In this document: in pieces, positions 35,797-52,909 of the stretch
How positions within the stretch are numbered: position 1 is the first letter of the stretch
Layout of the letters: every line of letters begins with the position of its first letter
Assembly (NCBI GenBank): GCA_964356225.1
Contig: CAYHGA010000001.1
Location: forward strand, 104,220 to 168,219
Source: an uncultured Gammaproteobacteria bacterium
Lineage (GTDB): Bacteria > Patescibacteriota > Microgenomatia > CAZETR01 > Amesbacteraceae
Direction: 5' to 3'
DNA length: 64,000 nt
Notes under the pieces: generated by a model
What the model was told of the DNA's origin: nothing
The model's database searches: none
The model's input: the letters and a program-made list of their open reading frames with translations, nothing else
Translations under genes and position numbers: made by a program

Positions 35797-38045
35797 AAGT
35801 AATTTTCAGGTTTTACAAAAAGGCCACTAACCTGCATTTCTAAGTGCAGATGGGTATTGCCTCCTTGATTATATAATTTTCCAACGGGCTTGCCAGAGTC
35901 GAGTGATTTCGTAAAATCAACTGTTGTTTGATCCATGTGCGTAAACGTTATGACATGTTTTCCAGTCTGGTCCCGATATAAGTAACTGAATCCGGAGCCT
36001 GGATTTGGAAACGACGTAGTGGGGTTCCAGGTGGTTGGGTTGCCATCAACTGACGGCGCGTAAACCCAAGCGTTGTCTCCTGGAAAAAGATCGGCGGCGT
36101 ATCCATAAAAAGGACACTTGGAAGAGGGGTGGGTTTGCTGACATTTGTTTCCGGTATTGCTGTTGGGAGCCTGACAGCCGATTAAAGTTTGCGGCAGGGG
36201 ATATGTGCAATCTTGGTGGGCGACATTGTTCCAATAATAGTTTGATCCGTGGCCGCCAGCGATGTCGTTTTCGTGCGAAGAATCGTATGATTTTTGTTTA
36301 TATACGCCATTCAAAATGGGACAAGAAATATTACGGGGGGCGTCTTGGGGTGGTTGGTTGTTTGTGGAAAACGGATTAGGGGGGACGACGAGGGCGGAGG
36401 AGTTGATGATGAAGAGAATTAGGGCGATGCCGATGGGAATACTTATGATAATGATGATTATGGGGGCGGCGATTTCGGTGGCCACAAGTCCGACCATGGC
36501 GGTGGAAGCGGTGGCAATGGCGTTACCGGTCTTGGTAAGAGCCCCGGCAACTCCGCCGGATCCTTGAATAGCAGCGCCGGCGACAGCCCCCGTAAGTCCG
36601 AGTGCGGAAGTGCCAATAAGACCCAGCCCGCCGATGACTCCACCGACTATTCCCGCCAGTCCCAGGAAAATAGCCGGAAGATATTCTTTGATGAGGATCT
36701 TGGCTTTCGACCAGAGAGTTTTGACGGCTTCGATGGCAAGGGGAATAAGAAGGGAAAGACCTAGTGTTTCCGGAGCCAAAGCGGCTCCGGCGGCGGCTTC
36801 GGCCCCGACAGCGGCAGCTTCGGTGGCAGCGGCGGTGGCGGCTTTGGTTCCTAAGGAAGTGAGAACTTTTTTACCGACTTCGGAGGCGGCGAATTTTTCC
36901 CAGGCGGCAGAGGCCACTTTGTCTTGAATTTTGTTTTTGCCGAAACCGACGAGACAATTGAACCAACCAGATTGATCTGGGGATAGAGGTTGGCCGGGGA
37001 CATGGTCCGATTGAGATGAATAAAACTGGAGCGGGCGGGTGAAATAAACAGTGCGGTAGTTGAGATATTCAATTACTTGATTTGAAAAGTAGATTTGAAC
37101 TCCGGAAACGCGCTGGGAATGCTGCGGGGGAGAGTCTGAGAGCCGGTGAGGTGTGAAAGAGGCAATGGTATTGATAAGGGGGACGAAGTGGGTGGCAAAT
37201 TGGGAAGCGAGGGACAGGGCCTGCGGGGTGGGATAACCGGCCTTGAGAAATTGGTTGTGAAGAGACAGGGTTAGGGGGGGGGTGGTAGGGGAGGGAGCTT
37301 GAATTTGGGAAATGCTGGATGCAGCAGTTTGGGGAATATTGAGAGGTTTACCAATGGCTTCTGAAGCTAGAGTTAGACGCTCAAGGAGTTGTTGGATTTG
37401 GGGGACCGTAACCTGGGGGGTGGCGATTTTGAGAACAGTGACGGCGGCGGCGGCCGGCTGGGGAAGAACTTGAATGGTTTGAAGATAAATATTTTCAATG
37501 ACGGGGTGGGAAACTTCGGGAATAAGGGGAGCTAAAATTTCAGGGAGAACAATGCTGGCAAGTTTTTCGATGGTGCCGACGGGTTCAAGAATAAGGCTGG
37601 GGGCAATATCGGGGATAGATTTTTCCAGCCCGGGAACATTTTGGGAAAGTTTTTTTAGAAGATCCAGGTGTTTTTGATAACTTTCCGCCCCAATTTTTTT
37701 TATGGCTTCGTCTTGACGGGCAAGACGCTCCTGATCTCTTTTTTCTTCTAAAAGCCTGACGTTTTCCTGGAGGTTGTCTATGGCCATGTTACTGGTGGCG
37801 TCGAGGTTGAGGGTACGAATTACATCAATGAGGGAAACAATACGGTCAAGCAGGTCTGGGTTGTTTTTTATTTGGTTGATGATGTTTTCGGCCGCGGCCC
37901 CCTTTTTTTGACGAATGGTGCTTTCGTATGCAGTCCACAGGCTGGTTTCGGTTTGGGCCAGAAACTGATAATCGTGGGGATGGAGACCGACGAGGCGAAG
38001 GGTTTCTTGAAGAACGGCGGCTTGTTTTTGAGCGAGATCGGCCAT
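35787..38045 (-). CDS. large membrane protein with C-terminal M23-like peptidase domain (T4SS-associated cell-wall hydrolase candidate)
   Basis: Helical/coiled-coil N-terminal half. Central Gly/Ala-rich multi-TM block. The C-terminus carries HENDIAGGHG and GNTHLHLEMQ motifs, which are LytM-like HxxxD and HxH. Confidence 0.45.
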   Translation of the reverse strand: MADLAQKQAAVLQETLRLVGLHPHDYQFLAQTETSLWTAYESTIRQKKGAAAENIINQIKNNPDLLDRIVSLIDVIRTLNLDATSNMAIDNLQENVRLLEEKRDQERLARQDEAIKKIGAESYQKHLDLLKKLSQNVPGLEKSIPDIAPSLILEPVGTIEKLASIVLPEILAPLIPEVSHPVIENIYLQTIQVLPQPAAAAVTVLKIATPQVTVPQIQQLLERLTLASEAIGKPLNIPQTAASSISQIQAPSPTTPPLTLSLHNQFLKAGYPTPQALSLASQFATHFVPLINTIASFTPHRLSDSPPQHSQRVSGVQIYFSNQVIEYLNYRTVYFTRPLQFYSSQSDHVPGQPLSPDQSGWFNCLVGFGKNKIQDKVASAAWEKFAASEVGKKVLTSLGTKAATAAATEAAAVGAEAAAGAALAPETLGLSLLIPLAIEAVKTLWSKAKILIKEYLPAIFLGLAGIVGGVIGGLGLIGTSALGLTGAVAGAAIQGSGGVAGALTKTGNAIATASTAMVGLVATEIAAPIIIIIISIPIGIALILFIINSSALVVPPNPFSTNNQPPQDAPRNISCPILNGVYKQKSYDSSHENDIAGGHGSNYYWNNVAHQDCTYPLPQTLIGCQAPNSNTGNKCQQTHPSSKCPFYGYAADLFPGDNAWVYAPSVDGNPTTWNPTTSFPNPGSGFSYLYRDQTGKHVITFTHMDQTTVDFTKSLDSGKPVGKLYNQGGNTHLHLEMQVSGLFVKPENYLCQ

Positions 38046-38048
38046 AGA

Positions 38049-40424
38049 CTAGGGGGTGGTTTCAGGAACTAGACGAACTTTCTCTTCTTTTTGAGCACTG
38101 AGTATTTCTGAAGGCTTGGTGGTAATGAGCTTGTGTTCGTCGGGAGAGGCGACGACGCGGATGGCGACGTGATTATTGCCGGCAAAAAACAGACCTTCGC
38201 CCACCTCGCTACTTAATAGTAAATGCTTCTCCCCCTCGGAAAGATAGAAGACCTGGGCGACTTTGTCGATGGCGGCGGGGGATTGTTTCATGAGAACTTG
38301 GATACTGGAATTGGTGACGATGGCCTTGCCGTAATCCGTGCTCAAGAAATCTTCCACGTCCTGGGTAATAGTGGTCAGCCCCAGGAAATACTTGCGGGCG
38401 CGTTTAGCAATGCCGTATAAAAAGGCGGCGGAGTCGGGGGAGCGCATCAGATACCAGGCTTCATCGACAATTAGCAGTCTCTTTTTTAAATCCCGGCGCA
38501 TTTTGGTCCAAATATAATCCAAAATAATAAAAATGGCGATGGGCTTGAGGGAGTCTTCCAAATCGCGGACGGAAAAAACAGTGAAAGGATTTTTGAGATT
38601 GACGTTGCTGGGCTGGTCGATGATGCCGCGGAAGCTGCCTTTGACGAATTTTTCAATGCGGTCGGCCAGGGCCCCGGCCTGGGGTTCTTCCATACCCACC
38701 AGGGCTTTGTAGAGGTCCTCCATGAGGGGTGGAGGGAGTTTTTGGGTTTGGGGATCTGGGGTGATGCCTTTCATTTTGTAGGTGGCAACCAGGGCCCGGT
38801 CCAAAATAGCTTCTTCGGCGGGAGACAAGACGCCCATAATGACCTTAAACAGGGAATGCAGAGAGAGAATTTTTAAGTTTAGTTCGTTTTCATCGGAAGT
38901 GTCGGTGAGGGCAGAGAGGTCGAAGGGGTTGAGGCGGCAGGGAGAATTGAAAGAAAAGTTGATATATTCGCCGCCGACGGCGTCGGAAAGAGTTTTGTAT
39001 TCGTTTTCAGGGTCGATGATAATAATTTCGGTGCCAAACATGAGGGAGCGGAGGATTTCCAGCTTGACCAGGTAGCTTTTTCCGGCGCCAGCTTTGGCAA
39101 AGACAACGGTGTTGGCGTTTTCTAAACTGAACCTGTCAAAAATTACTAAACTGCCGTTGTGCTCGTTGAGTCCATACAGCACGCCTTCGTTGCTGGTGAG
39201 TTCAGAGGAGGTAAAAGGAAAAGTAGTAGCCAGAGAAGTGGTGTCCATGTTGCGGGTGACCATGAGGTGGTCAATACAGGCAGGGAGAGTGGTTTTGAAA
39301 CCGTCGGCCTGTTGGAGAAGGGCGGGGGCGGTGGTGATAAGCAAAGAACCTAAGGTGCTGGAAACCTGTTTGGTGACCTGATTAAGTTCGCTCTCGGATT
39401 TGGCAGGAATGGTGACATACAACCCAAACTGAAAGAAGCGTTCGGCACCTTTGACCAATTGGTCTTGGAGGGAGAGGGCGTCTTCGAGTTTGGCTTGGGT
39501 GCTGGGGTCGACCACCCGGCCACGCTGCAAGTCGGTGGAGATTTCGGCCTCCATTTCGGCAATTTTCCTGCGCAGATCATCGAGAGTGGATTTGCTTTCT
39601 ACGGGGTAGACGAACATAGAGATATTTAAAGAGTGGTCAAAATTAATGAGGGGAGCCAGCCAGTTGGCGGTGACAAAACGGGGATAGCCGGCCACAAAAA
39701 GGGAGCGGAAATACCAGTCGTCGATTTTGAGGGTGTTGAAATCAACTGTAATTACTTGAGGAGCGATGGAGGAGGCGGCTGTGACTTTGGTTTCAACCTG
39801 GGAGCGGTGATAGGAGCTAAAGAAAAACTGAATAAGTTCGGGGGAAGTAAGCTGGCGGGCGCGGAGGCCGATGCGAGCCAACAATCTGGCAAGATGATCA
39901 CGCTTAGGAGAGAGAGCCAGGGCGGCGCGGGCCAGGATTTCGGCTTGGGGTTTGGGCGGAGTTGGGGACTTTTTATTGATAGAAATCAGGGATTTGAAAT
40001 TAGAGGAGATACCAAGCTCCAGAGAAGAGAAGGGAATGGCCACGTAGAACTTTTTGTCCAGGACGTTGCCCTGGCGGACGACGGTTTTAATAAAGTCGCG
40101 ATATTTGGCAAGCTGGTCATGTAAAAGAGAGTTGGCAGTTTTTCCCAGCTGCAGATCCAGGAGGGAAAGATAATCAGAAATATCCTTTTGTTTGGAGGAA
40201 ACGACGATTTGAATGGAAAAAGTGAGAGAGTTAAGAAGCTGGGCGTAGGCATAGATGGTGGCGTCCTGCTCTTTTTCGGACAATAAGCCGAAGTTAAGGG
40301 CGGAAACTTCTAACACTAAGCAAGCGGAGCCGTCTTTGAGAACGACTAAATCTTGAGCGATATCCTGGACGTCAAGATGGTCTTGGGTTGTGGATTTGAT
40401 AATGTGATTAGTTAGTTGGTTCAT
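38049..40424 (-). CDS. VirB4/TrbE/CagE-family type IV secretion ATPase
   Basis: 791 aa. Walker A VVFAKAGAGKSYLV and Walker B LLIVDEAWYLM. The overall VirB4 architecture has a long N-terminal domain. Confidence 0.8.
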   Translation of the reverse strand: MNQLTNHIIKSTTQDHLDVQDIAQDLVVLKDGSACLVLEVSALNFGLLSEKEQDATIYAYAQLLNSLTFSIQIVVSSKQKDISDYLSLLDLQLGKTANSLLHDQLAKYRDFIKTVVRQGNVLDKKFYVAIPFSSLELGISSNFKSLISINKKSPTPPKPQAEILARAALALSPKRDHLARLLARIGLRARQLTSPELIQFFFSSYHRSQVETKVTAASSIAPQVITVDFNTLKIDDWYFRSLFVAGYPRFVTANWLAPLINFDHSLNISMFVYPVESKSTLDDLRRKIAEMEAEISTDLQRGRVVDPSTQAKLEDALSLQDQLVKGAERFFQFGLYVTIPAKSESELNQVTKQVSSTLGSLLITTAPALLQQADGFKTTLPACIDHLMVTRNMDTTSLATTFPFTSSELTSNEGVLYGLNEHNGSLVIFDRFSLENANTVVFAKAGAGKSYLVKLEILRSLMFGTEIIIIDPENEYKTLSDAVGGEYINFSFNSPCRLNPFDLSALTDTSDENELNLKILSLHSLFKVIMGVLSPAEEAILDRALVATYKMKGITPDPQTQKLPPPLMEDLYKALVGMEEPQAGALADRIEKFVKGSFRGIIDQPSNVNLKNPFTVFSVRDLEDSLKPIAIFIILDYIWTKMRRDLKKRLLIVDEAWYLMRSPDSAAFLYGIAKRARKYFLGLTTITQDVEDFLSTDYGKAIVTNSSIQVLMKQSPAAIDKVAQVFYLSEGEKHLLLSSEVGEGLFFAGNNHVAIRVVASPDEHKLITTKPSEILSAQKEEKVRLVPETTP

Positions 40425-40783
40425 GGTTCATTGTTCATGGTTAACGATTTCTTTAGGGCACTAATCATTTTGGATAGGGATTCTAGTTTAGTGTAATAGA
40501 TGCTTAAGTTTTGAGGGTTAATGTATCCTTGGCTTTTTGCAATTGTTAATATGGCGACACATTCATAACATGAACCACGGGACAGGTCCAAGAAATGACG
40601 AAAGTCGTTGATTTTTCTACTGCTTCCTTCGGCGATGTTTAGAGCAATAGATACAACAGCTCTTCTTAATTGGTCGGTTAGGCCATAGGTTTCTTGTTTG
40701 GGCCATGAATTTGTAATGCTGTAAATCTCTGAAGCAATGCTTAATGCTTCTTGATAGACACGCAATTCTTCAAATTTGAACAT
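40421..40783 (-). CDS. four-helix-bundle protein (23S rRNA IVS-protein family)
   Basis: 120 aa. The sequence FEELRVYQEALSIASEIY...YGLTDQLRRAVVSIALNIAEGSSR...FLDLSRGSCYECVAIL matches the family consensus. An ATGA overlap couples it to virB4. Confidence 0.7.
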   Translation of the reverse strand: MFKFEELRVYQEALSIASEIYSITNSWPKQETYGLTDQLRRAVVSIALNIAEGSSRKINDFRHFLDLSRGSCYECVAILTIAKSQGYINPQNLSIYYTKLESLSKMISALKKSLTMNNEP

Positions 40784-40792: not shown

Positions 40793-41623
40793 CTATGAAC
40801 TAACTAACCGTGAACTTTCAAGTTGGGCTTTGATGACTATGGGGGAAATAATTTTATTTTCGGCTTGGAGAGTGAGGGGGGAAAATTGTAGGCCCTCCTT
40901 CTCGGCTATTAGAGTGTAGGTTCCTTGGGGTAGTGGGGTAGCAGTCATAAACTGGCCGAGTTTGTTGGAGCGGAGAGCCCGGACAGGAACACCTGCGGCA
41001 TCGGATAATTCTAAAATTACTCCTTCTAAGTACGATCCGGCGGAATCAAGAACTTGGCCAGTGAGAAGGTTGGGGTAGTCGGGAGAGGGAATTGAGTTAT
41101 TGGTTACTTGGTTACTTGGTTCATGGTTCATAGCGGCCGGAGGTTTGATGACTGGTGTTTGGTATTCAGTATTCAATATTCGGTGTTCGGTTGAGGGTTG
41201 AATGGCCGAGAAGGCCAGGTTGGGGTGGGAGAAGATTTGGGAGAAACGAGCAAAAAGCTGGCCTTCGATTACGTCAAGAGTAGTTTTTTTAGTTATTTGG
41301 TTAGTTGGTTCATGGTTCATGGTAGCCGGGGGTTGGGAAGTTTCGGACCAGTGAAATTCTGTGGGAGAGTAGATGGCTTTGATAAAAGCCATGATCCATT
41401 GGGAAAAAGGGCGGCCGGAGACGGGAACAAAAGCCAACATGATACCCATTAAAACCGACAGGGCCATGACGGGCCATTTAATGAAAAAAGGGAGGGGAAG
41501 GCGGTATAAAACCGCAGCAACGGCAATGCCGCCGGCTAATTGGAAAAATTGCTTGAGGGTCATGTCACCCACGAGGTGAAATTCGTATGAAGAAATATTT
41601 TGTGGTACAGGGTGCTGATCCAT
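40793..41623 (-). CDS. membrane protein with C-terminal carboxypeptidase-regulatory-like beta domain
   Basis: Two or three N-terminal TM helices. Two in-frame ATGAACCATGAACC-type micro-repeat patches (MNHEPTNQ, MNHEPSNQ). The C-terminal Ig-like GQVLDSAGSYLEGVILELSDAAGVPV region. Confidence 0.35.
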   Translation of the reverse strand: MDQHPVPQNISSYEFHLVGDMTLKQFFQLAGGIAVAAVLYRLPLPFFIKWPVMALSVLMGIMLAFVPVSGRPFSQWIMAFIKAIYSPTEFHWSETSQPPATMNHEPTNQITKKTTLDVIEGQLFARFSQIFSHPNLAFSAIQPSTEHRILNTEYQTPVIKPPAAMNHEPSNQVTNNSIPSPDYPNLLTGQVLDSAGSYLEGVILELSDAAGVPVRALRSNKLGQFMTATPLPQGTYTLIAEKEGLQFSPLTLQAENKIISPIVIKAQLESSRLVSS

Positions 41624-41656: not shown

Positions 41657-41899
41657 TCAGGATTTTAACCCTAAGTTTTTGATAGTTGTTGTAAGTAACT
41701 TGATGACTTCTTTTTTACTGTTTCTTCCGTATCCTTCGGCGATATTTGCACCAATTGAACTAGAGGATCTTAATATTTGTTTGTATAAAACTTCAGACGT
41801 TTTGTTACCAGGAAGATGGCTAAAAAGAAGAACTATTTCTTTTGTCCCCTGTTTGGCTTTCTGAAAATAGATGAGATTATGATGATCAAAGTAACTCAT
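41657..41899 (-). pseudogene. C-terminally truncated second four-helix-bundle protein (remnant)
   Basis: EVLYKQILRSSSSIGANIAEGYGRNSKKEVIKLL matches the family core, but the ORF stops about 35 aa early. Confidence 0.35.
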
Positions 41900-41986: not shown

Positions 41987-42004
41987 GGCTTTTTCACACA
42001 AAAG
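41987..42004. repeat. 18-bp direct repeat GGCTTTTTCACACAAAAG, copy 1, upstream of mntA
   Basis: An identical 18-mer recurs at 42884-42901 immediately after the hepT stop. Both copies lie upstream of a TTGTAG...TATAAT-like promoter. Confidence 0.55.
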
Positions 42005-42031: not shown

Positions 42032-42463
42032 ATGGTTAAGTTGGACATCAATAGAAAAGGGCTGGAAAAAATTTGTCGCAAATACGGCGTGATTGCGGTG
42101 TATGTGCATGGGTCGCAAGTTAAGGGTTATGCCGCACCGGATTCAGATACTGACGTGGCGGTGGTAGTGAGAGATAGAAATAAGTTGGAACGAGGACATT
42201 TCGGTAGCTATAACGTTGTAAATGAAATGGAAGGAGTGTTGAGTATAAAAAACCCCGACGTGAGAGTAGTTGACAAAGACAGTTCGCCAGTGTTTCTATT
42301 CGAGATTATTTCTGATGGAAAAATCGTTTATCAGGAGAACGAAAGTTCTAGGCTTGGATTTGAAGAGAGAGTTTTGCGAACTTATTATGATGCTGAATAT
42401 ATGAGAGAAGTTTATGGAGATTATTTATACAGAGATATTAAAGCGAGGGCCTATGCCAATTAA
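42032..42463 (+). CDS. mntA: MntA-type minimal nucleotidyltransferase (antitoxin of a HepT/MntA module)
   Basis: The NTase signature is YVHGSQVKGYAAPDSDTDVAVVV. It is followed by an overlapping HEPN gene. Confidence 0.6.
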   Translation: MVKLDINRKGLEKICRKYGVIAVYVHGSQVKGYAAPDSDTDVAVVVRDRNKLERGHFGSYNVVNEMEGVLSIKNPDVRVVDKDSSPVFLFEIISDGKIVYQENESSRLGFEERVLRTYYDAEYMREVYGDYLYRDIKARAYAN

Positions 42464-42884
42464 AGAAGAGGTGGTTCGGGAAAAATTAATCAAAATCCGA
42501 AAAATGGTAGACAGGATTGGAAACATGGATTTTACGGAAGAGGAATTTGACGAAGACGTAGATGTGCAAGATTTACTGGTTTTTCGTCTAGAGCAAGCGG
42601 TGGAACAGGCGATTGATATTGCTACTCATCTGGTTTCTGCCAAAGGTCTACCAAGGCCAGGAACTTTAAAAGAATTATTTGGAGCGTTGGGTAAAGCCAA
42701 AATGTTACCTGAAGAAATCACTAAGGCCATGACTAAAGCCGTAGGTTTCAGGAATATTGCGGTACATGAATACGACGATGTTAAATTTGATATTAAAAAG
42801 GTCTACAGAGATTATAAAGATGATGTCCGGGACTTGAAGAAATTTTGTGCAGAAGTGGTGAGGCTTTTGGAAAAAGAGAGGTAG
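42453..42884 (+). CDS. hepT: HepT-type HEPN toxin (DUF86)
   Basis: The C-terminal R-x4-6-H HEPN motif is FRNIAVHEY. The start overlaps the mntA end. About 143 aa. Confidence 0.6.
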   Translation: MPIKEEVVREKLIKIRKMVDRIGNMDFTEEEFDEDVDVQDLLVFRLEQAVEQAIDIATHLVSAKGLPRPGTLKELFGALGKAKMLPEEITKAMTKAVGFRNIAVHEYDDVKFDIKKVYRDYKDDVRDLKKFCAEVVRLLEKER

Positions 42885-42901
42885 GCTTTTTCACACAAAA
42901 G
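42884..42901. repeat. 18-bp direct repeat GGCTTTTTCACACAAAAG, copy 2
   Basis: See copy 1. It lies 26 bp upstream of the 827-aa ORF. Confidence 0.55.
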
Positions 42902-42926
42902 GGAGTGGATGTTGTAGAATTGTGGT

Positions 42927-45410
42927 ATGGCAGATCCTCCAACTGAGACCCCACATCCGGAAGCGGACGGTATCGATCCTGGGGTGTTGGCGTTTGCTCG
43001 GATGTTAATGGCGGCTGGCCAGTCTGGGGTTGGGGGCGAGTTTAGTGGCCCAGTTGATCCGTTGCACCCAGAAAAAGGGATGGCTAGGTATAGGATGTCG
43101 GAGCTGGAAATGGACTTATATAACGAAAAGGACTCGGATAAATTGAAGGCTGCAATAAGAAGGGGAATAGATATTTTGGATGGGATTCCAGACGCATTAC
43201 ACACGGGAGATACTCCTTTGATTATGAGCAGTTTTATTAATCCGCAAGTTAAACCACTTCAAAATACTGATTACGGTTTGTGGGTGGTTATTCATAGCAG
43301 AGTAGCAAAAGCTGCCGCTGACTTGAGAACTAGAGCTGAAAGGGCGGGGGTGAAGGTGGAGCATGAAACCGCAGAACTGATGAGGCAGGATATGGAGACG
43401 GCAAAGGCAGAAAAAGAAGATCCGCGGTATAAAGATCCGCTAATTTGGTTGTACTTGAAGAGGAAAGAGGAGAGTGTGGCTAGGGCGGCGGACGTCGAAC
43501 AAATTAGTGTGCAGAAGTATGAGGAAAAACATCCAGAAACTCTGGATCCGGAGATTGCTTTAATTAGAGAAGGAATTTGGGCAGAGTTTCAGGCGAGAGA
43601 ACGGCTACACAACGCGTGGGTGGACCGGATGACCACGACTGGTTCAAGTGGTAACCAACGGGGGGAAGCCGCGAGTTTATTTGTGGACCCGAACCACACC
43701 GACATTAAAGGTTCAGACTGGATCTTGTTATTTAGGGACCCGGTTCAAACAGAACATGAAGATGAGGCGATGAGGGCAATGGTAGATGTGGCGTTGGGTC
43801 AAGAGATGTTGTGGAAAAATAAAAAAACTCCCGGAGATTTAAGTGTGGACAAGAAAGAAATGTGGCAGGTGATGCTTGAAAGGCGGATACAAAAAAACCC
43901 AGATGTTTTAAAAGATTTAAAAGAATTATTGAAAAGGCCAGGATTTGAAAGTAAGACCTTACAACAAACAAAAGAGGCTTTGAAGCAAAAGATAAGTTTG
44001 TATGGAGATTTGAAAAAAGCGTATGACAGGGAGCTAGAAGCTGTTTCAAAAAAGATGGACCCAAGACACGGAAAACTGGCGGAAGCGATGGTACAAATGG
44101 CCGGGACTACGCCTAGCAAGTGGACTACCTTGGGACAGGGTGAAAGCAATTTGTTTGTGAGTGACGTCCCGGAATTTGATTTGGGTGAAAGAACGGGAAC
44201 TTGGATGCCGAGAATGGAAACGACTCTGGCAGAATATACCAGGCTGTACAAATATTTTGAGTGGAAGAATCCGTATCCAGACAACTTTAAGACATCAGAA
44301 GTGTTTGGGGAGTGGTTTAACTACGTGCTTTCTAGGGCGAAAGGAGACGTGCGAGCGGTGTATTTGGCCTGGAGAAAGTTTCAGTTGTGGGAGGTCGTCT
44401 CGAGGCCAGAGATCGGGTCTGTGAGCGACGAAGAAAGAGGGCCCAATATAGGGGACCCGACGATGGTGGGCGATATTGCGGCGTGGCATTATGGTTTTGA
44501 AAAAAAAAGGGAAAAAGAGTTTGGCCGGATCTTACGGTCTGACGGGACACATAAGGACTTGAGAGGTGAGAGTGGAGTAGTGGGGTCGCAGACGAGATAT
44601 GCAGCAGGACCGCCGGTGACAATTGACCACATTAATGTGTTGGGAGTGCCGTTTTTGGATCATGCCACAGGAACTATGAAGGGAAAACAAGGGAAGAGAA
44701 GTTTGTGGGAACTGTGGTACGAGAAAGGGACGGGATTAAAAGATTTACCCTGGATGGACATAGAAGATCCTAAGGACTGGGTGGGCGTGGACCAGGAGGT
44801 GGCACCCCACAGCTTTAATGGATGGTTATATCAGAGGTTTAATGCGGCGACAGTCATGGGATGGTTGACAAAGTGGTCGGTAACGGTGCCAGATCTGCTG
44901 AAAGTGGGCGATGATGGAAAGTTGGTTATGGAGAAGGTGGTTAAGGCGTTTGATAAGACATTTGGAGATATGGAACACGATGCGTTTAAGAGAGCTAAAA
45001 AAAGATTAGAAGAAGGGGATAGGTGGAATCAATTTGAGCCGTTTACGGTTGAGAATATGGAAAATCCCAAGCTAAGAGGAAAAATCGACCCAAGGGCGAT
45101 TGCAGTAATGGGATGGATAACCCAAAGACACCCTGACGGGTCGGGGAGAACTTCGGGGGATGATAGTAATAGACCCCTCCCAGAATATTTAAGATTTGTT
45201 CCGGGTGATTCGGAAAAGAACAACATTGGTAGAGGGTTGTCTTCAGCTTTTCAAGACTCAACAGTTGATTTACTCAGAGCCTGTTTATTTCACGGGTTTC
45301 TGGATAAAAATACCGTGGTTGAATTGATTAAATATTGTCATCTGGGAGAGGGAGCTGAAATGGAGGAGGCGAGGAATATTTACAAGAGCTTGGGTGTGGT
45401 GAAAAAATAA
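42927..45410 (+). CDS. large soluble protein of unknown function (827 aa) inside the T4SS-like cluster
   Basis: Long uninterrupted ORF with no TM segment, Walker motif or HUH motif that I can see. Charged and helical. Confidence 0.4.
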   Translation: MADPPTETPHPEADGIDPGVLAFARMLMAAGQSGVGGEFSGPVDPLHPEKGMARYRMSELEMDLYNEKDSDKLKAAIRRGIDILDGIPDALHTGDTPLIMSSFINPQVKPLQNTDYGLWVVIHSRVAKAAADLRTRAERAGVKVEHETAELMRQDMETAKAEKEDPRYKDPLIWLYLKRKEESVARAADVEQISVQKYEEKHPETLDPEIALIREGIWAEFQARERLHNAWVDRMTTTGSSGNQRGEAASLFVDPNHTDIKGSDWILLFRDPVQTEHEDEAMRAMVDVALGQEMLWKNKKTPGDLSVDKKEMWQVMLERRIQKNPDVLKDLKELLKRPGFESKTLQQTKEALKQKISLYGDLKKAYDRELEAVSKKMDPRHGKLAEAMVQMAGTTPSKWTTLGQGESNLFVSDVPEFDLGERTGTWMPRMETTLAEYTRLYKYFEWKNPYPDNFKTSEVFGEWFNYVLSRAKGDVRAVYLAWRKFQLWEVVSRPEIGSVSDEERGPNIGDPTMVGDIAAWHYGFEKKREKEFGRILRSDGTHKDLRGESGVVGSQTRYAAGPPVTIDHINVLGVPFLDHATGTMKGKQGKRSLWELWYEKGTGLKDLPWMDIEDPKDWVGVDQEVAPHSFNGWLYQRFNAATVMGWLTKWSVTVPDLLKVGDDGKLVMEKVVKAFDKTFGDMEHDAFKRAKKRLEEGDRWNQFEPFTVENMENPKLRGKIDPRAIAVMGWITQRHPDGSGRTSGDDSNRPLPEYLRFVPGDSEKNNIGRGLSSAFQDSTVDLLRACLFHGFLDKNTVVELIKYCHLGEGAEMEEARNIYKSLGVVKK

Positions 45411-45420: not shown

Positions 45421-47211
45421 TTATCCCCTTCTTATTTTTCCGCTTAGACTGTCCACAAAGTCTGAATAGCCTTTGCCGAGTCTGCCGGCAGGGATAAACA
45501 CGCCAGGTTTGGATGGGTCTGGAATCATTAACCCAGAGCGAATACCTATTTGGGTACCTACATATGATGCTCCAGTACCGGCGCCCTCTCTGAATGGCAT
45601 GGTGGCTTCTCCGAATGCTGCCCCATACTTAAAGGCGGGAATCTTGAGGGCGTCACGGATCATATCTGCAATCTTGGGGGTGAGAGAAAAAATTACGAAT
45701 CCCGTGCCTAGAGATATTAAAACACTAATTTCTCCTGAACCGCCCATATAGGGGAGAGATAGATTTATTCCACCTAAGTCCCAAAAAGACTTAAGCCCAA
45801 GCATATTGTTTAAAAAAATATTTCCTGACAAGATATTTTGGAGCAGGAACATAATGGGTACGACCGCAAAAACAGAAGCGTTGGCGATTAAATTTCGGAG
45901 CCATGGCCCGAATCCCTGTTGGCCAGGAACGAGATCAAGCATGATTTGGAGGGGGGCTATAACTATTTGAAGGACGATCATTACATAGGCCTTGATAAGC
46001 ATCCAGAGTATTTTCCAGAGAATGATCAAGAAATATATAAAAATTATTGCAATGATGACGGCCCCCAACAATAGACTGCCCCCGGCCGTGAAACCAGCTA
46101 GGGCTATGGAAAATATACCTACTATTAACAAGGAAAAGAACAGGGTGGGAAGGGTTTGAACTGCTGCATAGAGAGCAAAGGGAATGTTGGTAGTAATGTT
46201 TATAGTTCCAGGGAGATTGGTTGTCAGTTGATTTAGACCAAGCATGCCAATAAAGGCCACAATAATCACATAAACAAGGTCAATGACAAAGCCGGCGATG
46301 GCGAAGGAGAAAGTGACTAAAAGCATAGTGATGATGAGCTTGGGGATCATGGTTTGGAGAGAGACGACGGTTTGGGGATTGATTTTGACCCGGAACATAA
46401 TTAGGAAACCAGAGGCGACTAGAAGGATAACCATGACCAGATAGGCCATGTTGCGGGAAGCGGTCCAGAGAGCGCGGACGGCGGAGCCGGAATTGCCGCC
46501 CAAACCACTGAAGCCGTATCCACCGGACTGGGCATAGGCGGGCTGGACGCCAGTGCCAAGGTCAAATAGGCGGGTGGCCATATATTTGATTTCGCCGATA
46601 CCAGAGGCGGGAGGGTTAGAGTAGAGAGCAGAAATGCCGCCGGCGAAAAGACCGGCGGGGCCGAGCTTGGCATAATCTTGGATGGTGGGGAGTTGGCCAG
46701 AGACAGCATCCTTGATAACTTTTTCAATGGCAGTAATAAAATCGAAAAAATCTGTAGCCGTATGAATATTGGCAGCGGGGTTTAACATAGTGGCGATGCT
46801 ATTGATGATCCAGTTAATTTGAGCGTAGGTGTAACGTTCGCCAAAGATATCCGATTCGTTGGTAGGATCTAAAACTTTTTTGGAAAATTGAGAGGGGTTT
46901 TGACTATACCATGGTCCGTCGGTCTGGTTCTCAAAAAGTTTAGAAATTGCCTGGCAAGTTTGTAATGACATCCCTGGGGGAAGAACGGCACAAAAATCGG
47001 CGGAGGCGGGAGGTGGAGCGGTGGAACAGTCGGAAGCTGGAGAACAGCAAGCAAGGGGATTGCTCGTGCCACACGTGACACCGCCGGAAATTGAACAAGT
47101 TCCCCCCGTGACATTAATCGTTCCACAGGCGGCAAAAGTGGGGGTAGCGGATGAGAGCAGGAGAGTAAAAGAGTAGAAGAGTGTAAGTAAAAACAGGGCA
47201 GATTTTTTCAT
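45421..47211 (-). CDS. TrbL/VirB6-like polytopic membrane protein with Cys-rich secreted N-terminal module
   Basis: Signal peptide, then CGT...C..SGG..CG..NPLACCSP..DCS, then at least 6 TM helices with Gly-rich loops. Confidence 0.45.
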   Translation of the reverse strand: MKKSALFLLTLFYSFTLLLSSATPTFAACGTINVTGGTCSISGGVTCGTSNPLACCSPASDCSTAPPPASADFCAVLPPGMSLQTCQAISKLFENQTDGPWYSQNPSQFSKKVLDPTNESDIFGERYTYAQINWIINSIATMLNPAANIHTATDFFDFITAIEKVIKDAVSGQLPTIQDYAKLGPAGLFAGGISALYSNPPASGIGEIKYMATRLFDLGTGVQPAYAQSGGYGFSGLGGNSGSAVRALWTASRNMAYLVMVILLVASGFLIMFRVKINPQTVVSLQTMIPKLIITMLLVTFSFAIAGFVIDLVYVIIVAFIGMLGLNQLTTNLPGTINITTNIPFALYAAVQTLPTLFFSLLIVGIFSIALAGFTAGGSLLLGAVIIAIIFIYFLIILWKILWMLIKAYVMIVLQIVIAPLQIMLDLVPGQQGFGPWLRNLIANASVFAVVPIMFLLQNILSGNIFLNNMLGLKSFWDLGGINLSLPYMGGSGEISVLISLGTGFVIFSLTPKIADMIRDALKIPAFKYGAAFGEATMPFREGAGTGASYVGTQIGIRSGLMIPDPSKPGVFIPAGRLGKGYSDFVDSLSGKIRRG

Positions 47212-47242: not shown

Positions 47243-49162
47243 TTATTGGGCCAGACTGGCGGATTTGATGATGAGCTGGAGGGGGGCGGTGTTTTTTTTG
47301 ACAACCGAGCTGTATACCTGATCACCCAATCCTTCCACTTGTTGATCGTTGGCAGGATCACGGAAGACGGACATGGTATATTCGCCGGCGGTGTCTTCCA
47401 GAGATGAGAAAGGAATGTTTTGAAATAACTGTTTCCACCAATCACCATTTTTAACATAAACGGGGGTGCCCTTGTTGGGATCGAAATCGTCTAGACGTTT
47501 TTTGAAGACGGCAGGGTCGGAACAGGGTTTGGCAGACGTACCCAGAGCGTCATTGCAGCCTACAATTGTGTTGTGAACGTCCTGTTGTCTGGATTCGATG
47601 ACGACGTTTTTGAGAGTGGTGGCCAAGTCGAAAGGGAGAAGTTTGCGCAGGGGGCCGGAATAGTTGACTACGCGGCTGATAGCGGCGGGGTTATTGGAAT
47701 CAATGGGCAGCTGGTCGCCGATTTGGGGAGTGCCGGTGAGGTACCAGGACAAATATTCGTTGACTTTTTGGGCGTCGGTGAGGGTGGTGTCCTGGGTGTT
47801 ACTTAAAACGCCTAAATTGGCGTGAGAGAGATCGACGGTAACGTCAAAAGCTGACGAGCGCCAGCAGGTGACGGTTCCACCATTTTGGAGCATGTTTTTG
47901 AAGTCTCTTTTTTCTTGGTCCGATGTTCCGAATTCGCTGGGATAACAAACGGTATGAGCAAAACCCTTTGTTGTTCTCCTTTCGTATAACCCGTTTTTGC
48001 CATAGGGATCAAAGCGTTCAATTGCCGATGGCGTCAGCGATGTGCCACAAGCAAAAGTATTAAATTTCTTTTCGGAAGTAAGCGGAGCTTCGGGAACGGA
48101 GCGGGAGATTAGGGGATCGCAAGGAGAGCCGGGATATGGGCGCAGAGGATGATATTCAGGGTCGGCAGGATTACCACTACAGGGATAATATTTGAGGGGG
48201 TTAAACCCTTCTTCTAATGGGCCTTTTTTCTGGGGGAGAGGAGGACCAGTGGGAATTTCATCAAACTTATAACCAACTTCACCAAGATAAAAGGGCTTAC
48301 CAAGCTGATTAGATTGATCTTGGGCTTGGGACGCAAGGGACTTTTCCGAGGGATTATAGTAGTGAGCAGAAGTAAGGTCAATGGACGAAGAATTATTACT
48401 GTTTTTAAAGTCACCATTGCCTGGGCTGTCGCCTAAAGTAGTATTTTCGTTCGATTTTTGGCCGATACTGACTTTGGCATCGGAATCGATACGTTTTATT
48501 TGTTGGGCAACATCGTTAGCCCAAAGTTTGTAAGGTCCACGACAAGCGTCAATACCACTACAATGCGGCTCGTTGGCGAGTTCATAGCCAAAGAGCGACG
48601 GATTTCCTTTCAATTTACTAACGACGGATTTTATATATGGAAGATAAGCCGTTTTATAGTCGGAAAGATACCAAGATGTGGGATCGGATCTGATATCACC
48701 AGGGAGAATATCCCCACTACTGTTACTGTAATCTGCGAGAACGACGATGGTTTTGACACCATATTTTTCGGCAGAGTCCAATACTAATTTTGGGTCTCCC
48801 CGGTCGGGACTGCCCCAAACGCGGACAACGGAAACTCCACACTCCTTTGATAAATAAGAAAATGTGTCGTCTGTTTGAGTAGGATGATTGGCCAAACTAT
48901 GAATGTTAACACCGATGAATTTGCCGGAATATTTATCGGCGGCTTGTTTGAGAATGCCACAAACAGGACTTCCTTTGTAAAATGAATAGGGATCGTTTTC
49001 GAAATACTTGTCTTTTGGGCCGGAGTATTGCCAGACAAGAAAACCGGCAGCACCGGAGCCAAACCACTGGTCGAGGTCAGATTGTAAATCGTCGAGTGGA
49101 CCGGCCAAAACGGCGGGAGCCGTAATTAAAATTATGCACAAAAATAGTAAAAGTTTTTTCAT
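47243..49162 (-). CDS. secreted glycoside hydrolase family 5 enzyme
   Basis: Signal peptide MKKLLLFLCIILITAPAVLA. GH5 acid/base motif ELANEPHC and nucleotide-side nucleophile motif YLGEVGY. A long extra C-terminal domain follows. Confidence 0.55.
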   Translation of the reverse strand: MKKLLLFLCIILITAPAVLAGPLDDLQSDLDQWFGSGAAGFLVWQYSGPKDKYFENDPYSFYKGSPVCGILKQAADKYSGKFIGVNIHSLANHPTQTDDTFSYLSKECGVSVVRVWGSPDRGDPKLVLDSAEKYGVKTIVVLADYSNSSGDILPGDIRSDPTSWYLSDYKTAYLPYIKSVVSKLKGNPSLFGYELANEPHCSGIDACRGPYKLWANDVAQQIKRIDSDAKVSIGQKSNENTTLGDSPGNGDFKNSNNSSSIDLTSAHYYNPSEKSLASQAQDQSNQLGKPFYLGEVGYKFDEIPTGPPLPQKKGPLEEGFNPLKYYPCSGNPADPEYHPLRPYPGSPCDPLISRSVPEAPLTSEKKFNTFACGTSLTPSAIERFDPYGKNGLYERRTTKGFAHTVCYPSEFGTSDQEKRDFKNMLQNGGTVTCWRSSAFDVTVDLSHANLGVLSNTQDTTLTDAQKVNEYLSWYLTGTPQIGDQLPIDSNNPAAISRVVNYSGPLRKLLPFDLATTLKNVVIESRQQDVHNTIVGCNDALGTSAKPCSDPAVFKKRLDDFDPNKGTPVYVKNGDWWKQLFQNIPFSSLEDTAGEYTMSVFRDPANDQQVEGLGDQVYSSVVKKNTAPLQLIIKSASLAQ

Positions 49163-51330
49163 GGTGAAACGACACATGAGGCGATATTCAAAACGCTTTG
49201 TTGATAACAAGTGGAAGGATTGGCGACACAAGATGGCCGGGGTGGATATTTGGGGTCGGGATGTTTGGGATCTTCACAATAACCAAGGTATTGTCTGGCG
49301 GCTGTAACAATGTCTGAATTATTCCAATAGCAAGAGGTAGAAGGACCTTGGTTAGTATTGAGCACATAACCAATACATTCAGGAATAGAGTAGCTGGCGG
49401 CTCCACCACGTTCTTGACCAATTTTTTTAGCTGCTGCAAAAGTGGAGTCTAATAGATTACAAATATTGGGGGTACGACCATCGGACACTCCTGCTTCAAC
49501 GACAGCATTGGAATACGAGGACCACGTGCTAGGCAAGAATTGCCAGGGACCTTTAGCGCCGGAACTGCTAATATTACTACCATCACAATTAGTTACTTGA
49601 CAGTTTGGGCCACTGACAGCAAGAACTTTGGATTCATCCCAACCCCATGAAGGGTTAAGGCCTCCCTCATTATAAAATACGCCAACTAGAACAGAGACGG
49701 GAACTTTATAGAATGAGGCAGCTGATTCAAAAATATTTTTCATTGATAATGAAGGAAAAGATATCGAGCAAGTTTGGCATGTAGGGTCGATAATTGGCAG
49801 GGTGGGGAGTGTTGGAGTGCAGGCATTTTGATTGTTGGGAGGAGTAGTAGAAAAACCCAGGGGCCGGAGGGTTTTTTGCAGGCCCTGCAGGAAATATTCA
49901 TACAGACTGCCTAGATGGGGAATATAGATAGTGGGCGTGGCAGAGCCATTTCCGGCCTGAATATTTACTCTGCTACCTTCCTGGTTTACTCCGGTTGCCT
50001 CAGCTAAAAAACTAGCCTGGGAAGGGATTTCCTTAAACTCTTTGGGTAAATTCTTGGGAAAGATTCTTTTTAAGACCGATTGTGATCCTACTACCAGCGA
50101 ATCGTAAATATATTCTATAAGGGGAGTTTTGGTATACACCACGGCCCGGCCCTTGGTAGGATAATCGTTACCAGCGCGGGTGGCGCATTTGTAATAAACA
50201 TCCTCAGTTCCGATTAAGTTAGGGACGACCGTGACTTGCGGAGTCAAAGAATAATAACCATTCCCCTCATATTCCGAACAACATTTGGTGCCGGACCGCC
50301 GTTCTGTCTCGGATATATTGTAATTGTCTTCTTTACATCCGTCCGGGTGGGGAGCGGTTTCATAGGTATATTTTTGGGTATAAGTCAGACTGGATACAAT
50401 TGTGGGGCCCAGGAGATCGTCTCCGGGGTTGGCGCGGGTATCGGCGATACTGCAAAAACCGGAGGCTTTGTAAGGAAGATTGGGGTCGTTGAAAGAATAG
50501 AGAGGATCGGGAGCGGGGGCATTTACTTTCAAGGAAGAATTATTTTTGTCAGACACGTATTGGGTGTCGTCGTCCAGCCCTTGATGAAGCTGAATGCGGG
50601 TGGTAACGGCGGCGGGATTATCAAGAGAAGCTGATTGGGGAGCGGGGGGCTCGGCGTTTTTATTGAATGAGCCGGGAGCGGGATTGAAAATAGACTGGAG
50701 GAGAGTGGACAGGGCGGAGATATTTCTGAGCTGAGGAAACCAGAGGCGGGATTCGCCGGCGCCACTCCTGGCGATATTGGTGCAGAAGCCATATGGAGGG
50801 GTAACTGAAGGAAGAGAGGGAGAGCAATCATTGGGTTTGGGGGGAATTCCTGTTTGACTGCAAGAGTTTTTTGAACCACAACAAAAGACATTGTCGGAAC
50901 AAACTTTGACAGTGTTTATACCAGGAGAACCAAAAGTTAGTCCGTTAAAGGTGAACGGGCCGGAAGTCTGGGTTTCGATTTGGCCTTTGATGGGGGGGGT
51001 GGGGAGGGAGCTGGCCCCTTGGGCAAAATTGGCACCGTAACAGACCCAAAAATTTTGATTGCCGTCGATACCATACGCGCACCAGGGAATAATTTCGGGG
51101 GAAGTGCCGCAAATAGGGGATTTGAGAGTGTCGTAGGCCAAAGTTTCTTCTTTGGTGTCGCAGTACATTTGGATTCCCTGAAACTGGGCCGGAAATGGGG
51201 ATGTGCCGGTTTTTTGACAACGGCAGAGATCTTTTTGAGGATCATTACACCAGCAAGCCGCCCCCGCCGGAGGCGGGGCGGCAGAGCCCAGAAGGAAGAG
51301 AAAAGTGCTCAGGGCAAGAAATTTCTTCAC
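49159..51330 (-). CDS. secreted Cys-rich protein with C-terminal lytic transglycosylase (SLT-like) domain
   Basis: Signal peptide. N-terminal CWCNDPQKDLCRCQ. The C-terminal FYNEGGLNPS...SSGAKGPWQFLPSTW resembles the SLT E...S...GxMQ..P.TW motifs. Confidence 0.45.
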   Translation of the reverse strand: MKKFLALSTFLFLLGSAAPPPAGAACWCNDPQKDLCRCQKTGTSPFPAQFQGIQMYCDTKEETLAYDTLKSPICGTSPEIIPWCAYGIDGNQNFWVCYGANFAQGASSLPTPPIKGQIETQTSGPFTFNGLTFGSPGINTVKVCSDNVFCCGSKNSCSQTGIPPKPNDCSPSLPSVTPPYGFCTNIARSGAGESRLWFPQLRNISALSTLLQSIFNPAPGSFNKNAEPPAPQSASLDNPAAVTTRIQLHQGLDDDTQYVSDKNNSSLKVNAPAPDPLYSFNDPNLPYKASGFCSIADTRANPGDDLLGPTIVSSLTYTQKYTYETAPHPDGCKEDNYNISETERRSGTKCCSEYEGNGYYSLTPQVTVVPNLIGTEDVYYKCATRAGNDYPTKGRAVVYTKTPLIEYIYDSLVVGSQSVLKRIFPKNLPKEFKEIPSQASFLAEATGVNQEGSRVNIQAGNGSATPTIYIPHLGSLYEYFLQGLQKTLRPLGFSTTPPNNQNACTPTLPTLPIIDPTCQTCSISFPSLSMKNIFESAASFYKVPVSVLVGVFYNEGGLNPSWGWDESKVLAVSGPNCQVTNCDGSNISSSGAKGPWQFLPSTWSSYSNAVVEAGVSDGRTPNICNLLDSTFAAAKKIGQERGGAASYSIPECIGYVLNTNQGPSTSCYWNNSDIVTAARQYLGYCEDPKHPDPKYPPRPSCVANPSTCYQQSVLNIASCVVSP

Positions 51331-51339: not shown

Positions 51340-51627
51340 CTAGCAGACGGGGCCGGGGAGGCAGATGGAGAACATGGAGAAATTCAGTCCAAGGAAATTC
51401 CCCAGTAAGTTTAAGATAATCCAGGCAGATAAAACCAAGACCAGGCCACCGATGGCGTAGGTGAGAGTTTTTTGAGCTTTGGCGGCGCCTTCTTTGTCTC
51501 CACCGGCAGTTAAAAACCCAAAACCGCCCACAATCAACATTACTAAGACCGCAATTCCGGCTAAGGTCAAAGCACCGGAGACCACGGATGAAAAGACGGT
51601 TTCGAGATTTTGAATAGTGGCGGGCAT
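51340..51627 (-). CDS. pilin-like small 2-TM protein (VirB2/TrbC-like candidate), paralog 8 (promoter-distal; the array is minus-strand)
   Basis: 95 aa, two TM helices. The family motif is AGGDKEGAAKAQKTLTYAIGGLVLVLSAWII. Confidence 0.5.
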   Translation of the reverse strand: MPATIQNLETVFSSVVSGALTLAGIAVLVMLIVGGFGFLTAGGDKEGAAKAQKTLTYAIGGLVLVLSAWIILNLLGNFLGLNFSMFSICLPGPVC

Positions 51628-51704
51628 GTTTTTATTTTAACACTTCTCATCAAAACCAAATTGTCCCGCTTGCGGCGGGACAATTTAACGTCAACCCTAA
51701 GCAA

Positions 51705-52118
51705 CTATTGGGTAGTAATTGAGGGAATTACGAGGTTTAGAATACTGATGCCGAATATGCTATCGATAAGGAACGCAATGGCGTAGGTAGAAAAGACAAT
51801 CGCAAGGCCCAATAGGGCGGCCGTAATACGCTTGCGAGCTTTTTCGGTCCCTTCTTTGTCGCCGCCGGCCATAATCCATTGGACTCCTCCTATTAAGAGA
51901 AAGAAGAAGGCGACTAAACCTGCGCCCATTAGCACAAGGTTAATGCTGAGGCGAAGGATGTTTTGGGCATTAAACGTTCCCTCAGTGCCGATTGTCTGCC
52001 CTATTCCAGACTTAGGGATTAAGTCTATATTTTCTGCAAGGGCTGTGGTTGGTGATACGGTGAGCATTGTTGCTAGAGCAGAACCGTATTTGATGGCGTT
52101 TTTAATTTTGTTTGTCAA
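51705..52118 (-). CDS. pilin-like small 2-TM protein, paralog 7
   Basis: 137 aa. Contains MAGGDKEGTEKARKRITAALLGLAIVFSTYAI. Confidence 0.5.
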   Translation of the reverse strand: MTNKIKNAIKYGSALATMLTVSPTTALAENIDLIPKSGIGQTIGTEGTFNAQNILRLSINLVLMGAGLVAFFFLLIGGVQWIMAGGDKEGTEKARKRITAALLGLAIVFSTYAIAFLIDSIFGISILNLVIPSITTQ

Positions 52119-52133
52119 AGATGCTCACCTCCT

Positions 52134-52472
52134 TTACTGGATGACAGGAATTGTAAATTTAGTAATAGAAACACCAAATAATGTTTCAACTAAGTAGATT
52201 ATAGCAAAGATGGAGAAGACAATTGCAAGACCTATTAAAGCAGCGGTGAGACGTTTGGAGGCGGATTGGGTGCGTTCTTTGTCTCCTCCGGCGGTGATAT
52301 ATTCTATTCCGCCCCAGAGGAGCATAAAAAAGAAAATAATGCCGGCGGCTCCCAAAGCTAGAGTAATAAAATTGGTGAGAAAGAGCTGGAGGATGTCGAT
52401 GCCGGAACTATAACCAACGCTAGTATTGATTGCGGGGTTTTTAATGACGAAACCTTGGGCAAGTATTCTCAT
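52134..52472 (-). CDS. pilin-like small 2-TM protein, paralog 6
   Basis: 112 aa. Contains TAGGDKERTQSASKRLTAALIGLAIVFSIFAI. Confidence 0.5.
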   Translation of the reverse strand: MRILAQGFVIKNPAINTSVGYSSGIDILQLFLTNFITLALGAAGIIFFFMLLWGGIEYITAGGDKERTQSASKRLTAALIGLAIVFSIFAIIYLVETLFGVSITKFTIPVIQ

Positions 52473-52909
52473 CTTCGTGGAGTGCCACCGCCTCCAGTAC
52501 TACCGGGAATGTTACAAGTAAAGGTTGTGGTTCCGATGGTATTGGAAAAAAGGTCTCCAAATGGACAAAGGATGTTTATTCCGAAGATTAATCCTATGAT
52601 TCCAATTAGGGCGTAGGAAAATACGACTACAAACAGTCCTAAAATAGCATTCACGATTCTTTTTTGGGCGTTTTGCAGGGCTTGTTTTTCTCCTCCACCC
52701 GCTAACCACTGAAAGGCTCCGGCAAATATTTGAATGATAAACCAGACTCCGGCCGCAACAGTGAGAACACCGATTCCCGTGGAAAGAGTGGAGACAAAAA
52801 GGGCAAAGGGCTCTGTTCCTCCTTTGGTCAGGGTCTTGGTAAAATCTCCCAGGGGCCCCACGCCCTCAAAAGTTCCTAAAGGAGCGTCGGCTAAGAATTT
52901 CATGGGCAT
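52469..52909 (-). CDS. pilin-like small 2-TM protein, paralog 5
   Basis: 146 aa. Contains LAGGGEKQALQNAQKRIVNAILGLFVVVFSYAL. Confidence 0.5.
   Translation of the reverse strand: MPMKFLADAPLGTFEGVGPLGDFTKTLTKGGTEPFALFVSTLSTGIGVLTVAAGVWFIIQIFAGAFQWLAGGGEKQALQNAQKRIVNAILGLFVVVFSYALIGIIGLIFGINILCPFGDLFSNTIGTTTFTCNIPGSTGGGGTPRR

Follow-up and report, generated by a model that had tools for sequence, protein, structure and literature searches.

Type IV secretion systems (T4SSs) are widespread in the ultrasmall Patescibacteria, where they are encoded on the chromosome near the origin of replication, lack a relaxase and usually lack a coupling protein (PMC12102498, PMC12857230), and in the one genetically tractable species the system is essential for epibiotic growth (PMC10633639). 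With no relaxase and usually no coupling protein, the cargo of these systems and its selection are a puzzle. Described loci of the Microgenomatia type show proximity to dnaA, arrays of VirB2 genes, a scarcity of recognisable VirB6 proteins, the absence of a relaxase and a type IV coupling protein (T4CP) that is rarely found near virB4 (PMC12102498). We examined a 64,000-nucleotide stretch of contig CAYHGA010000001.1 (positions 104,220 to 168,219; hereafter the window), in which a gene for an 827-aa soluble protein lies within a T4SS-like cluster; FAM is used as a working name for this protein and its family. A preliminary description of the same DNA had offered three possibilities for the protein, namely a secreted effector, a novel coupling factor and an undescribed accessory component. 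Our analysis supports this interpretation in part, as the accessory component is favoured, the effector is disfavoured and a coupling factor of the classical kind is rejected.

We put at about even the chances that FAM is a lineage-specific, cytoplasmic, non-ATPase component, or an assembly or adaptor factor, of the Microgenomates-type Patescibacteria T4SS, here a chromosomal, dnaA-proximal system resembling the MPF-FATA class. FAM is more probably such a lineage-specific machine part or helper than a secreted effector. Its gene lies at one spot, with the PrgI(VirB3)-VirB4-hydrolase operon diverging on one side and the gene of a co-inherited polytopic membrane protein converging on the other. 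This fixed position, together with its single copy, its deep retention and its co-inheritance with one membrane protein, points to a T4SS component or adaptor and argues against an effector.

Genomic contexts were read at 14 further independent loci (L001, L002/3, L005/6, L007, L008, L009/10, L011, L012, L013 and L015-L019), onto which the window proteins were mapped by tblastn. At each of the 15 loci (the window and the 14 others) FAM is followed directly by a convergent homologue of the polytopic partner, 500-600 aa in length, and FAM is single-copy and fixed in position throughout this set, which includes one locus from a Candidatus Shapirobacteria metagenome-assembled genome (Microgenomates group). 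The preliminary description had proposed co-occurrence with T4SS genes in other Candidate Phyla Radiation (CPR) genomes as a check, and the outcome was strongly positive, with every readable relative occupying the equivalent place in a T4SS locus of the same kind. Past the polytopic partner, the pilin array is reached after one or two large secreted proteins of hydrolase-like type (GH5/U723-like, GDSL or SLT); the array is kept in L005, L009, L011-L013 and L015-L017. On the other side, PrgI, TraC-like and VirB4 genes lie upstream of and divergent from FAM in seven of the nine loci with 6.5 kb or more of upstream flank. L009 and L015 are the exceptions: they have no VirB4 nearby, and FAM is still accompanied by the polytopic protein and pilins, which ties it to the T4SS module and not to the replication origin. 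In these two loci and in L017, FAM stays with the block of polytopic protein, hydrolase and pilins while dnaA and VirB4 are not adjacent. In L009 a 564-aa DUF6909 protein (8221-9915, minus strand; E 2e-158) is divergent from FAM in place of PrgI/VirB4, with an intein-containing FtsH further upstream.

The plainest layout is that of L019, which reads YidC-YidD-RnpA, DnaA-DnaN, then a 333-aa protein, M23, VirB4, TraC-like and PrgI genes (all on the minus strand), a gap of 130 bp, FAM on the plus strand and, returning to the minus strand, the polytopic protein, a 163-aa protein, an SLT-like protein and pilins. The region from dnaA and dnaN through the T4SS to SpoIID is syntenic in the lineage, and the layout agrees with that published for Microgenomatia-type loci (PMC12102498). 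Compared with the proteins of the window, FAM shares 23-45% identity across loci and its polytopic partner 29-59%, against 63-82% for VirB4 (L005, L007, L012, L013, L016 and L019), so that FAM diverges in step with its membrane partner.

The FAM gene starts with an ATG that is the earliest possible start, given an in-frame stop at 42915-42917, and it encodes the longest soluble product of the cluster (827 aa, compared with 791 aa for VirB4). The window protein has a pI of 5.8 and contains no transmembrane (TM) segment (highest 19-residue Kyte-Doolittle mean 1.0) and, by motif scan, no Walker A, HxH/HUH or HExxH motif. Besides FAM, only a MNT/HepT toxin-antitoxin (TA) pair gives convincing genes on the plus strand of the 35.3-55.8 kb block. 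In these respects the preliminary description holds well, as it had called FAM the longest soluble open reading frame, free of TM segments, P-loop and HUH motif, and the only plus-strand gene besides the TA cassette.

Searches of Pfam, PHROGs, NCBIfam and PDB sequences gave no significant match to the window protein. Two matches below threshold and unseen in other family members, to a PHROG annotated as DNA methyltransferase (E ~0.02 over 50 residues) and to Pfam DUF2382 (E 0.12), were rejected as chance. A word-indexed search of 5.8 billion proteins gave only two relatives; they come from groundwater metagenomes and are 43-45% identical to FAM. The same search with a 57-sequence profile again returned only those two, a limit set by the word index. 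A three-sequence profile of FAM and these relatives, run exhaustively with HMMER over 1.84 billion representatives, identified 64 relatives at E<1e-3, with 33 at E<1e-10. Approximately 55 of the 64 are full-length proteins of 490-760 aa that are ~20% identical to the window protein and align with it end to end, excepting two helical insertions in the window's subfamily (~140-200 and ~300-440). Conserved blocks span residues ~81-120, 214-290, 450-535, 546-680 and 721-800 (window numbering), with G561 and W609 invariant, G86, F460, W482, E531 and G533 conserved in at least 90% of sequences, and near-invariant polar residues at E531 (98%), K527, R528, R546, E624, K677, R723 and Y450 (88%). The C-terminal core is rich in conserved Trp, Gly, Pro, Arg, Lys and Glu.

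Of the 57 members aligned, none has a Pfam match or a TM segment, NCBIfam gave scattered single-member matches at chance level with none consistent, a Walker A-like string occurs in one member and HxH in five, neither conserved, and there is no conserved Cys. The family profile found no match among PDB sequences. By tblastn there was no FAM homologue on 72,556 plasmids or in 50,697 phage records, the same plasmid set gave no match for a central family member (P0019) or for the polytopic partner, and none was found in viral contigs. A scan of genome contigs with the three-sequence alignment gave nothing, and a rescan with distant members gave five loci. By all of these searches FAM is a distinct, previously unnamed and unannotated family, restricted to T4SS loci of Microgenomates-type Patescibacteria. 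As called in the database, the genes of the two closest relatives (P0001 and P0002) are truncated at the N-terminus; in L001 a run of N at 577-599 lies just upstream and coding resumes inside the N-terminal region, and in L002 the open reading frame extends to an ATG at 1341, giving ~833 aa compared with 705 aa as called.

An AlphaFold2 model built from three sequences was unusable (pLDDT 40), and the 57-sequence alignment gave a confident model with a mean pLDDT of 79.7, a pTM of 0.81 and 320 residues at 90 or above. In this model disorder is limited to residues 1-55, 394-422 and 736-769. A helical domain (59-290) is followed by a long, subfamily-specific helical hairpin (312-392), a mixed alpha/beta core with several beta-hairpins (445-735) and a helical segment (773-821) that includes a helix at the C-terminus (810-821). 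The predicted fold is large and compact; its N-terminal half is helical and in part solenoid-like, and its C-terminal core is of mixed alpha/beta-hairpin type. In the window's subfamily this core is decorated by the variable helical insertions noted above. Structure searches with the model returned no RecA-like fold. For the preliminary description, a remote-homology search that revealed a common housekeeping enzyme would have refuted its reading; no housekeeping identity emerged from any search. This outcome and the fixed T4SS position favour the undescribed accessory component.

In the mechanism that we propose, FAM would dock on the cytoplasmic face of a membrane platform formed by the polytopic VirB6 candidate, PrgI and VirB4, and would serve there as a scaffold, adaptor or substrate-recruiting platform. 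It would thereby fill a role that is elsewhere supplied by a coupling protein or by the ARM-like extensions of the Saccharibacteria 'extended' VirB6 proteins. The latter are represented by SEML1_0011 and SEML1_0013 of Ca. Southlakia epibionticum, VirB6-like proteins of ~1000 aa with C-terminal ARM-repeat domains (PMC10633639, Table S2). Like these domains, FAM is helical and, in its model, partly solenoid-like, a comparison drawn from the published description. As in the extended-VirB6 loci, FAM is found beside a polytopic protein, here a VirB6 candidate, and a VirB2 array in a cluster with no coupling protein, and the combined length of FAM and its polytopic partner (~1100-1400 aa) is similar to that of an extended VirB6. 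Unlike the extended VirB6, however, FAM has a gene of its own on the opposite strand, and its C-terminal core is not a plain ARM repeat. FAM may be a stand-alone counterpart of the extended-VirB6 extensions, or may fill the recruitment niche of the absent coupling protein.

Two other groups of proteins invite comparison. T4CPs (VirD4/TraG/PcfC, TcpA) share with FAM the property of a cytoplasmic protein encoded with a membrane translocon, and FAM could take their vacant recruitment niche. In the Dot/Icm system, DotM, DotN and IcmSW are adaptor subunits of coupling complexes, and to regard FAM as an adaptor of this sort is speculation. FAM itself has no membrane anchor, no NTPase and no similarity to them in sequence or fold. 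The TrsD/TraC-like N-domain proteins are accessory cytoplasmic VirB4 partners in MPF-FATA and Patescibacteria systems (PMC12102498), and like them FAM is a lineage-restricted soluble protein conserved beside core T4SS genes. In contrast to them, it is unrelated in sequence and tracks the polytopic protein, not VirB4, and the TraC-like domain of the window is separate from FAM, being fused to VirB4.

Several points weigh against a structural or adaptor role. Conserved synteny demonstrates co-inheritance, not function. The VirB6 identity of the partner comes from topology and position only, with no Pfam match. The solenoid resemblance is weak, covering 90-170 aligned residues at high root-mean-square deviation. 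The invariant polar residues of the C-terminal core (E531, K527, R528, R546, K677 and R723) would also suit an enzyme, and none of the 57 aligned members is fused to a membrane protein, so that Rosetta-stone support is absent. The family is also narrow, with 64 clusters compared with thousands of Patescibacteria VirB4 proteins, so FAM is not a universal part of the machine.

Among the alternatives, it is unlikely that the T4SS translocates FAM as a substrate or effector, delivering it for instance to the host bacterium in epibiotic growth. Consistent with such a role, FAM is soluble with no signal peptide or TM segment, its model includes a disordered N-terminal region of ~55 residues and long disordered loops, it evolves fast (at the identities given above, in comparison with VirB4), and Patescibacteria T4SSs have been proposed to export proteins (PMC10633639). 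The preliminary description had suggested looking for a secretion-signal-like charge pattern at the C-terminus, and this gave a divided answer: the final 30 residues, taken over 57 members, carry a slightly more positive charge (mean +1.2, range -4 to +6) than the acidic family average (-0.41 per 30 residues), but the last residues of the window protein carry a net charge of -1 and no motif is conserved. The C-terminus is neither conserved nor disordered, as it ends in a predicted helix and alignment occupancy falls to 0.24-0.55 over the final ~27 residues. Translocation signals in monoderm or CPR systems are undefined. Effectors usually vary in presence, copy number and location, whereas FAM is single-copy, has a strictly fixed place at all 15 loci, is inherited together with one membrane protein and keeps its full-length architecture down to ~20% identity. 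The cluster also has no coupling protein to recruit a cytoplasmic substrate.

We assign an equally low probability to a broader proposal in which FAM is the missing cytoplasmic substrate-handling module of a Patescibacteria T4SS of the essential type, either a nucleotide-independent receptor or gate of new fold that replaces the coupling protein, or a new-fold enzyme (an unconventional relaxase or an RNA/DNA-handling factor) that prepares epibiont-host cargo. The more specific proposal that FAM is a new-fold enzyme processing the macromolecule in transit, whether an unconventional relaxase or a modifier of nucleic acids or pilin, is doubtful. The mixed alpha/beta-hairpin core of the model (~445-735), the near-invariant polar residues and the conserved Gly, Pro and Trp positions would fit an enzyme, relaxases are missing from most Patescibacteria T4SS clusters, and it has been noted that a 'very different relaxase' may remain to be found (PMC12102498). 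Against this, FAM has no HUH/HxH motif, conserved Cys or nucleotide-binding motif, the protein and its family are acidic, no homologue is found on any of the plasmids searched, and there is no T4CP nearby. A conventional HUH relaxase (MOB F/P/Q/V) was rejected outright on the HxH counts given above and on the absence of any Pfam or NCBIfam match.

It is improbable that FAM is unrelated to secretion, that is, an origin-proximal conserved gene that travels with the cluster by vertical inheritance. The synteny of the whole dnaA-dnaN-T4SS-SpoIID region would allow it, and as all relatives come from one related genome group the linkage could be phylogenetic inertia. FAM nevertheless lies within the cluster, flanked by PrgI and the polytopic protein, it remains with the block of polytopic, hydrolase and pilin genes in the three loci where dnaA and VirB4 are not adjacent, and it was never displaced although the spot upstream repeatedly took insertions (IVP genes and TA cassettes). 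The least probable by far is a divergent coupling protein (VirD4/TcpA-type T4CP), which size, cytoplasmic location and the lack of a recognisable T4CP in the cluster would fit, and which we reject in its classical form, as the coupling factor of the preliminary description fails in the VirD4 sense, because the defining features are lacking: there is no N-terminal TM anchor (no member among 57 reaches a 19-residue mean of 1.6), no Walker A/B, no match to Pfam T4SS-DNA_transf, TrwB or FtsK in the window protein or family-wide, and no RecA-like fold.

The cluster in which FAM is embedded (Table 1) has the features of Patescibacteria MPF-FATA-like systems, with a TraG P-loop/DUF87-type VirB4, PrgI/VirB3, a VirB2 array, a dnaA-proximal chromosomal location and no relaxase. 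The T4SS-like cluster of the preliminary description is thus confirmed by Pfam. No coupling protein or relaxase domain was detected across the 64-kb window, in agreement with the general absence of both from Patescibacteria T4SS clusters (PMC12102498, PMC10633639). The polytopic partner is a VirB6 candidate from its topology and position only; six orthologues gave no Pfam match even at E<=1. M23 genes occupy the position of the 752-aa membrane-anchored protein in L016 and L019. Housekeeping genes (MetRS, LeuRS, GroEL, YidC) are present in other parts of the window.

Table 1. Features of the T4SS-like cluster and the FAM upstream region (window coordinates)
Feature	Position	Strand	Description
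dnaA	32694-34055		abuts cluster
dnaN	34211-35317		abuts cluster
Membrane-anchored 752-aa protein	35787..38045	-	weak C-terminal M23 peptidase match; VirB1-like cell-wall hydrolase position
VirB4 ATPase	38049..40424	-	791 aa; P-loop_TraG (6e-31), AAA_10, DUF87, TraC_F_IV; fused TraC-like N-domain and P-loop domain
23S_rRNA_IVP gene, complete	40421..40783	-	four-helix-bundle; inside T4SS cluster
PrgI/VirB3-like	40793..41623	-	Pfam match; 2 TM segments, CarboxypepD_reg-like domain; first gene of divergent operon
23S_rRNA_IVP gene, truncated	41657..41899	-	80 aa; profile positions 2-64 of 106; between PrgI and FAM upstream region
18-bp element, copy 1	41987..42004	+	GGCTTTTTCACACAAAAG; with the DNA upstream of it, native FAM upstream region
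MNT/HepT cassette	42032..42884	+	MNT nucleotidyltransferase antitoxin (42032-42463), HepT HEPN RNase toxin (42414-42884); Pfam Polbeta/NTP_transf_2, HepT-like
18-bp element, copy 2	42884..42901	+	GGCTTTTTCACACAAAAG; ends 25 nt before FAM ATG; overlaps last base of HepT stop codon
-10-like hexamer	42915..42920	+	TAGAAT; consensus match; 6 nt upstream of FAM ATG; no Shine-Dalgarno
FAM gene	42927..45410	+	827 aa, soluble; open reading frame and translation
Polytopic partner	45421..47211	-	596 aa; signal peptide; ~6 TM segments by scan (6-8 predicted); convergent with FAM
Two secreted proteins	47243..51330	-	GH5 cellulase-like (662 aa) and U723 (723 aa); own signal peptide each
VirB2-like pilin array	51340..54639	-	eight tandem genes; Pfam T4SS_pilin in 7/8
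TA-like pair	54650-55796	-	AbiEii/DUF6036 nucleotidyltransferase (186 aa) and helix-turn-helix protein (200 aa)

Several observations concern the neighbours of FAM in their own right. The TraC-like and P-loop parts of VirB4, fused in the window, are two adjacent genes (~200-315 aa and 570-655 aa) in L005, L007, L016 and L019 and separate tblastn matches in L012 and L013. The pair of U723 and the GH5-like protein is homologous to one 1482-aa protein in L005 with reversed module order, the GH5-like module being N-terminal there. The TA-like pair between the pilin array and SpoIID is a second insertion of this type, and in L005, L012 and L016 the pilins lead directly to SpoIID with no pair between. 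GC skew on the plus strand is strongly positive (0.09-0.43) across the window (1-64000) whatever the coding strand, with no sign change at dnaA/dnaN. An Rfam search over the window found only a tmRNA and three tRNAs, and nothing near the FAM gene.

The region upstream of FAM contains an 18-bp element whose second copy, as the preliminary description had noted, lies just upstream of the gene. The element, GGCTTTTTCACACAAAAG, is found exactly twice in the window and in none of 100 dinucleotide-preserving shuffles, and it holds a 5-6-5 dyad (CTTTT-N6-AAAAG). The two copies, at a repeat spacing of 897 bp, bracket the MNT/HepT cassette exactly, which is a signature of insertion-associated duplication. 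The DNA at 41880-42004, including copy 1, aligns to the sequence that immediately precedes the FAM homologue of L001, where there is no TA cassette, and this indicates that the element is native to the FAM upstream region; a related GCGGGTTTTCACAGG is present in L005. L001, L005 and L019 lack the cassette; L002 has it, and no flanking repeat was found there. The simplest reading of these sequences is that the cassette inserted into the FAM upstream region and duplicated the 18 bp. The shared operator suggested in the preliminary description is thereby recast: the element would belong to FAM and have been doubled by the insertion, with the result that the cassette and FAM now both lie behind it. 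A role for the element as a sigma-70 -35 box was rejected, as the distance from TTCACA to the -10 hexamer is 19 nt for FAM and 21 nt for MNT, beyond the range of 16-18 nt, and a promoter scan made no call.

The gap between PrgI and FAM (41623-42927 in the window) is an insertion hotspot across loci. It measures 130 bp in L019, contains an IVP gene in L001, L005 and L016 and MNT/HepT in the window and L002, and extends to ~4.2 kb with IVP and HepT in L013. Close to the FAM start, the -10-like hexamer of the window has its counterpart in eight other loci (L002, L005, L007, L009 and L016-L019), where 6-9 nt separate the end of an extended -10 (TGnTATAAT) from the start codon, again with no Shine-Dalgarno sequence. 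These motifs suggest that the FAM transcript is of the leaderless type, and FAM is probably expressed from its own promoter as such an mRNA. The MNT gene of the window likewise has TGGTATAAT (42017-42025) 6 nt upstream of its ATG at 42032; taken together, the motifs upstream of FAM and MNT suggest leaderless-type transcripts in this lineage.

FAM is therefore a new and unannotated family inside a known kind of system. The family provides a clean marker for this type of locus and could join the T4SS profile sets, where it is now an unannotated gene. For a secretion system that is essential for epibiotic growth in the one species where genetics is possible, FAM, a soluble protein strictly co-inherited with the membrane translocon and with no detectable fold match, provides a concrete, testable candidate for the missing cytoplasmic half of the T4SS machine in one major CPR lineage.

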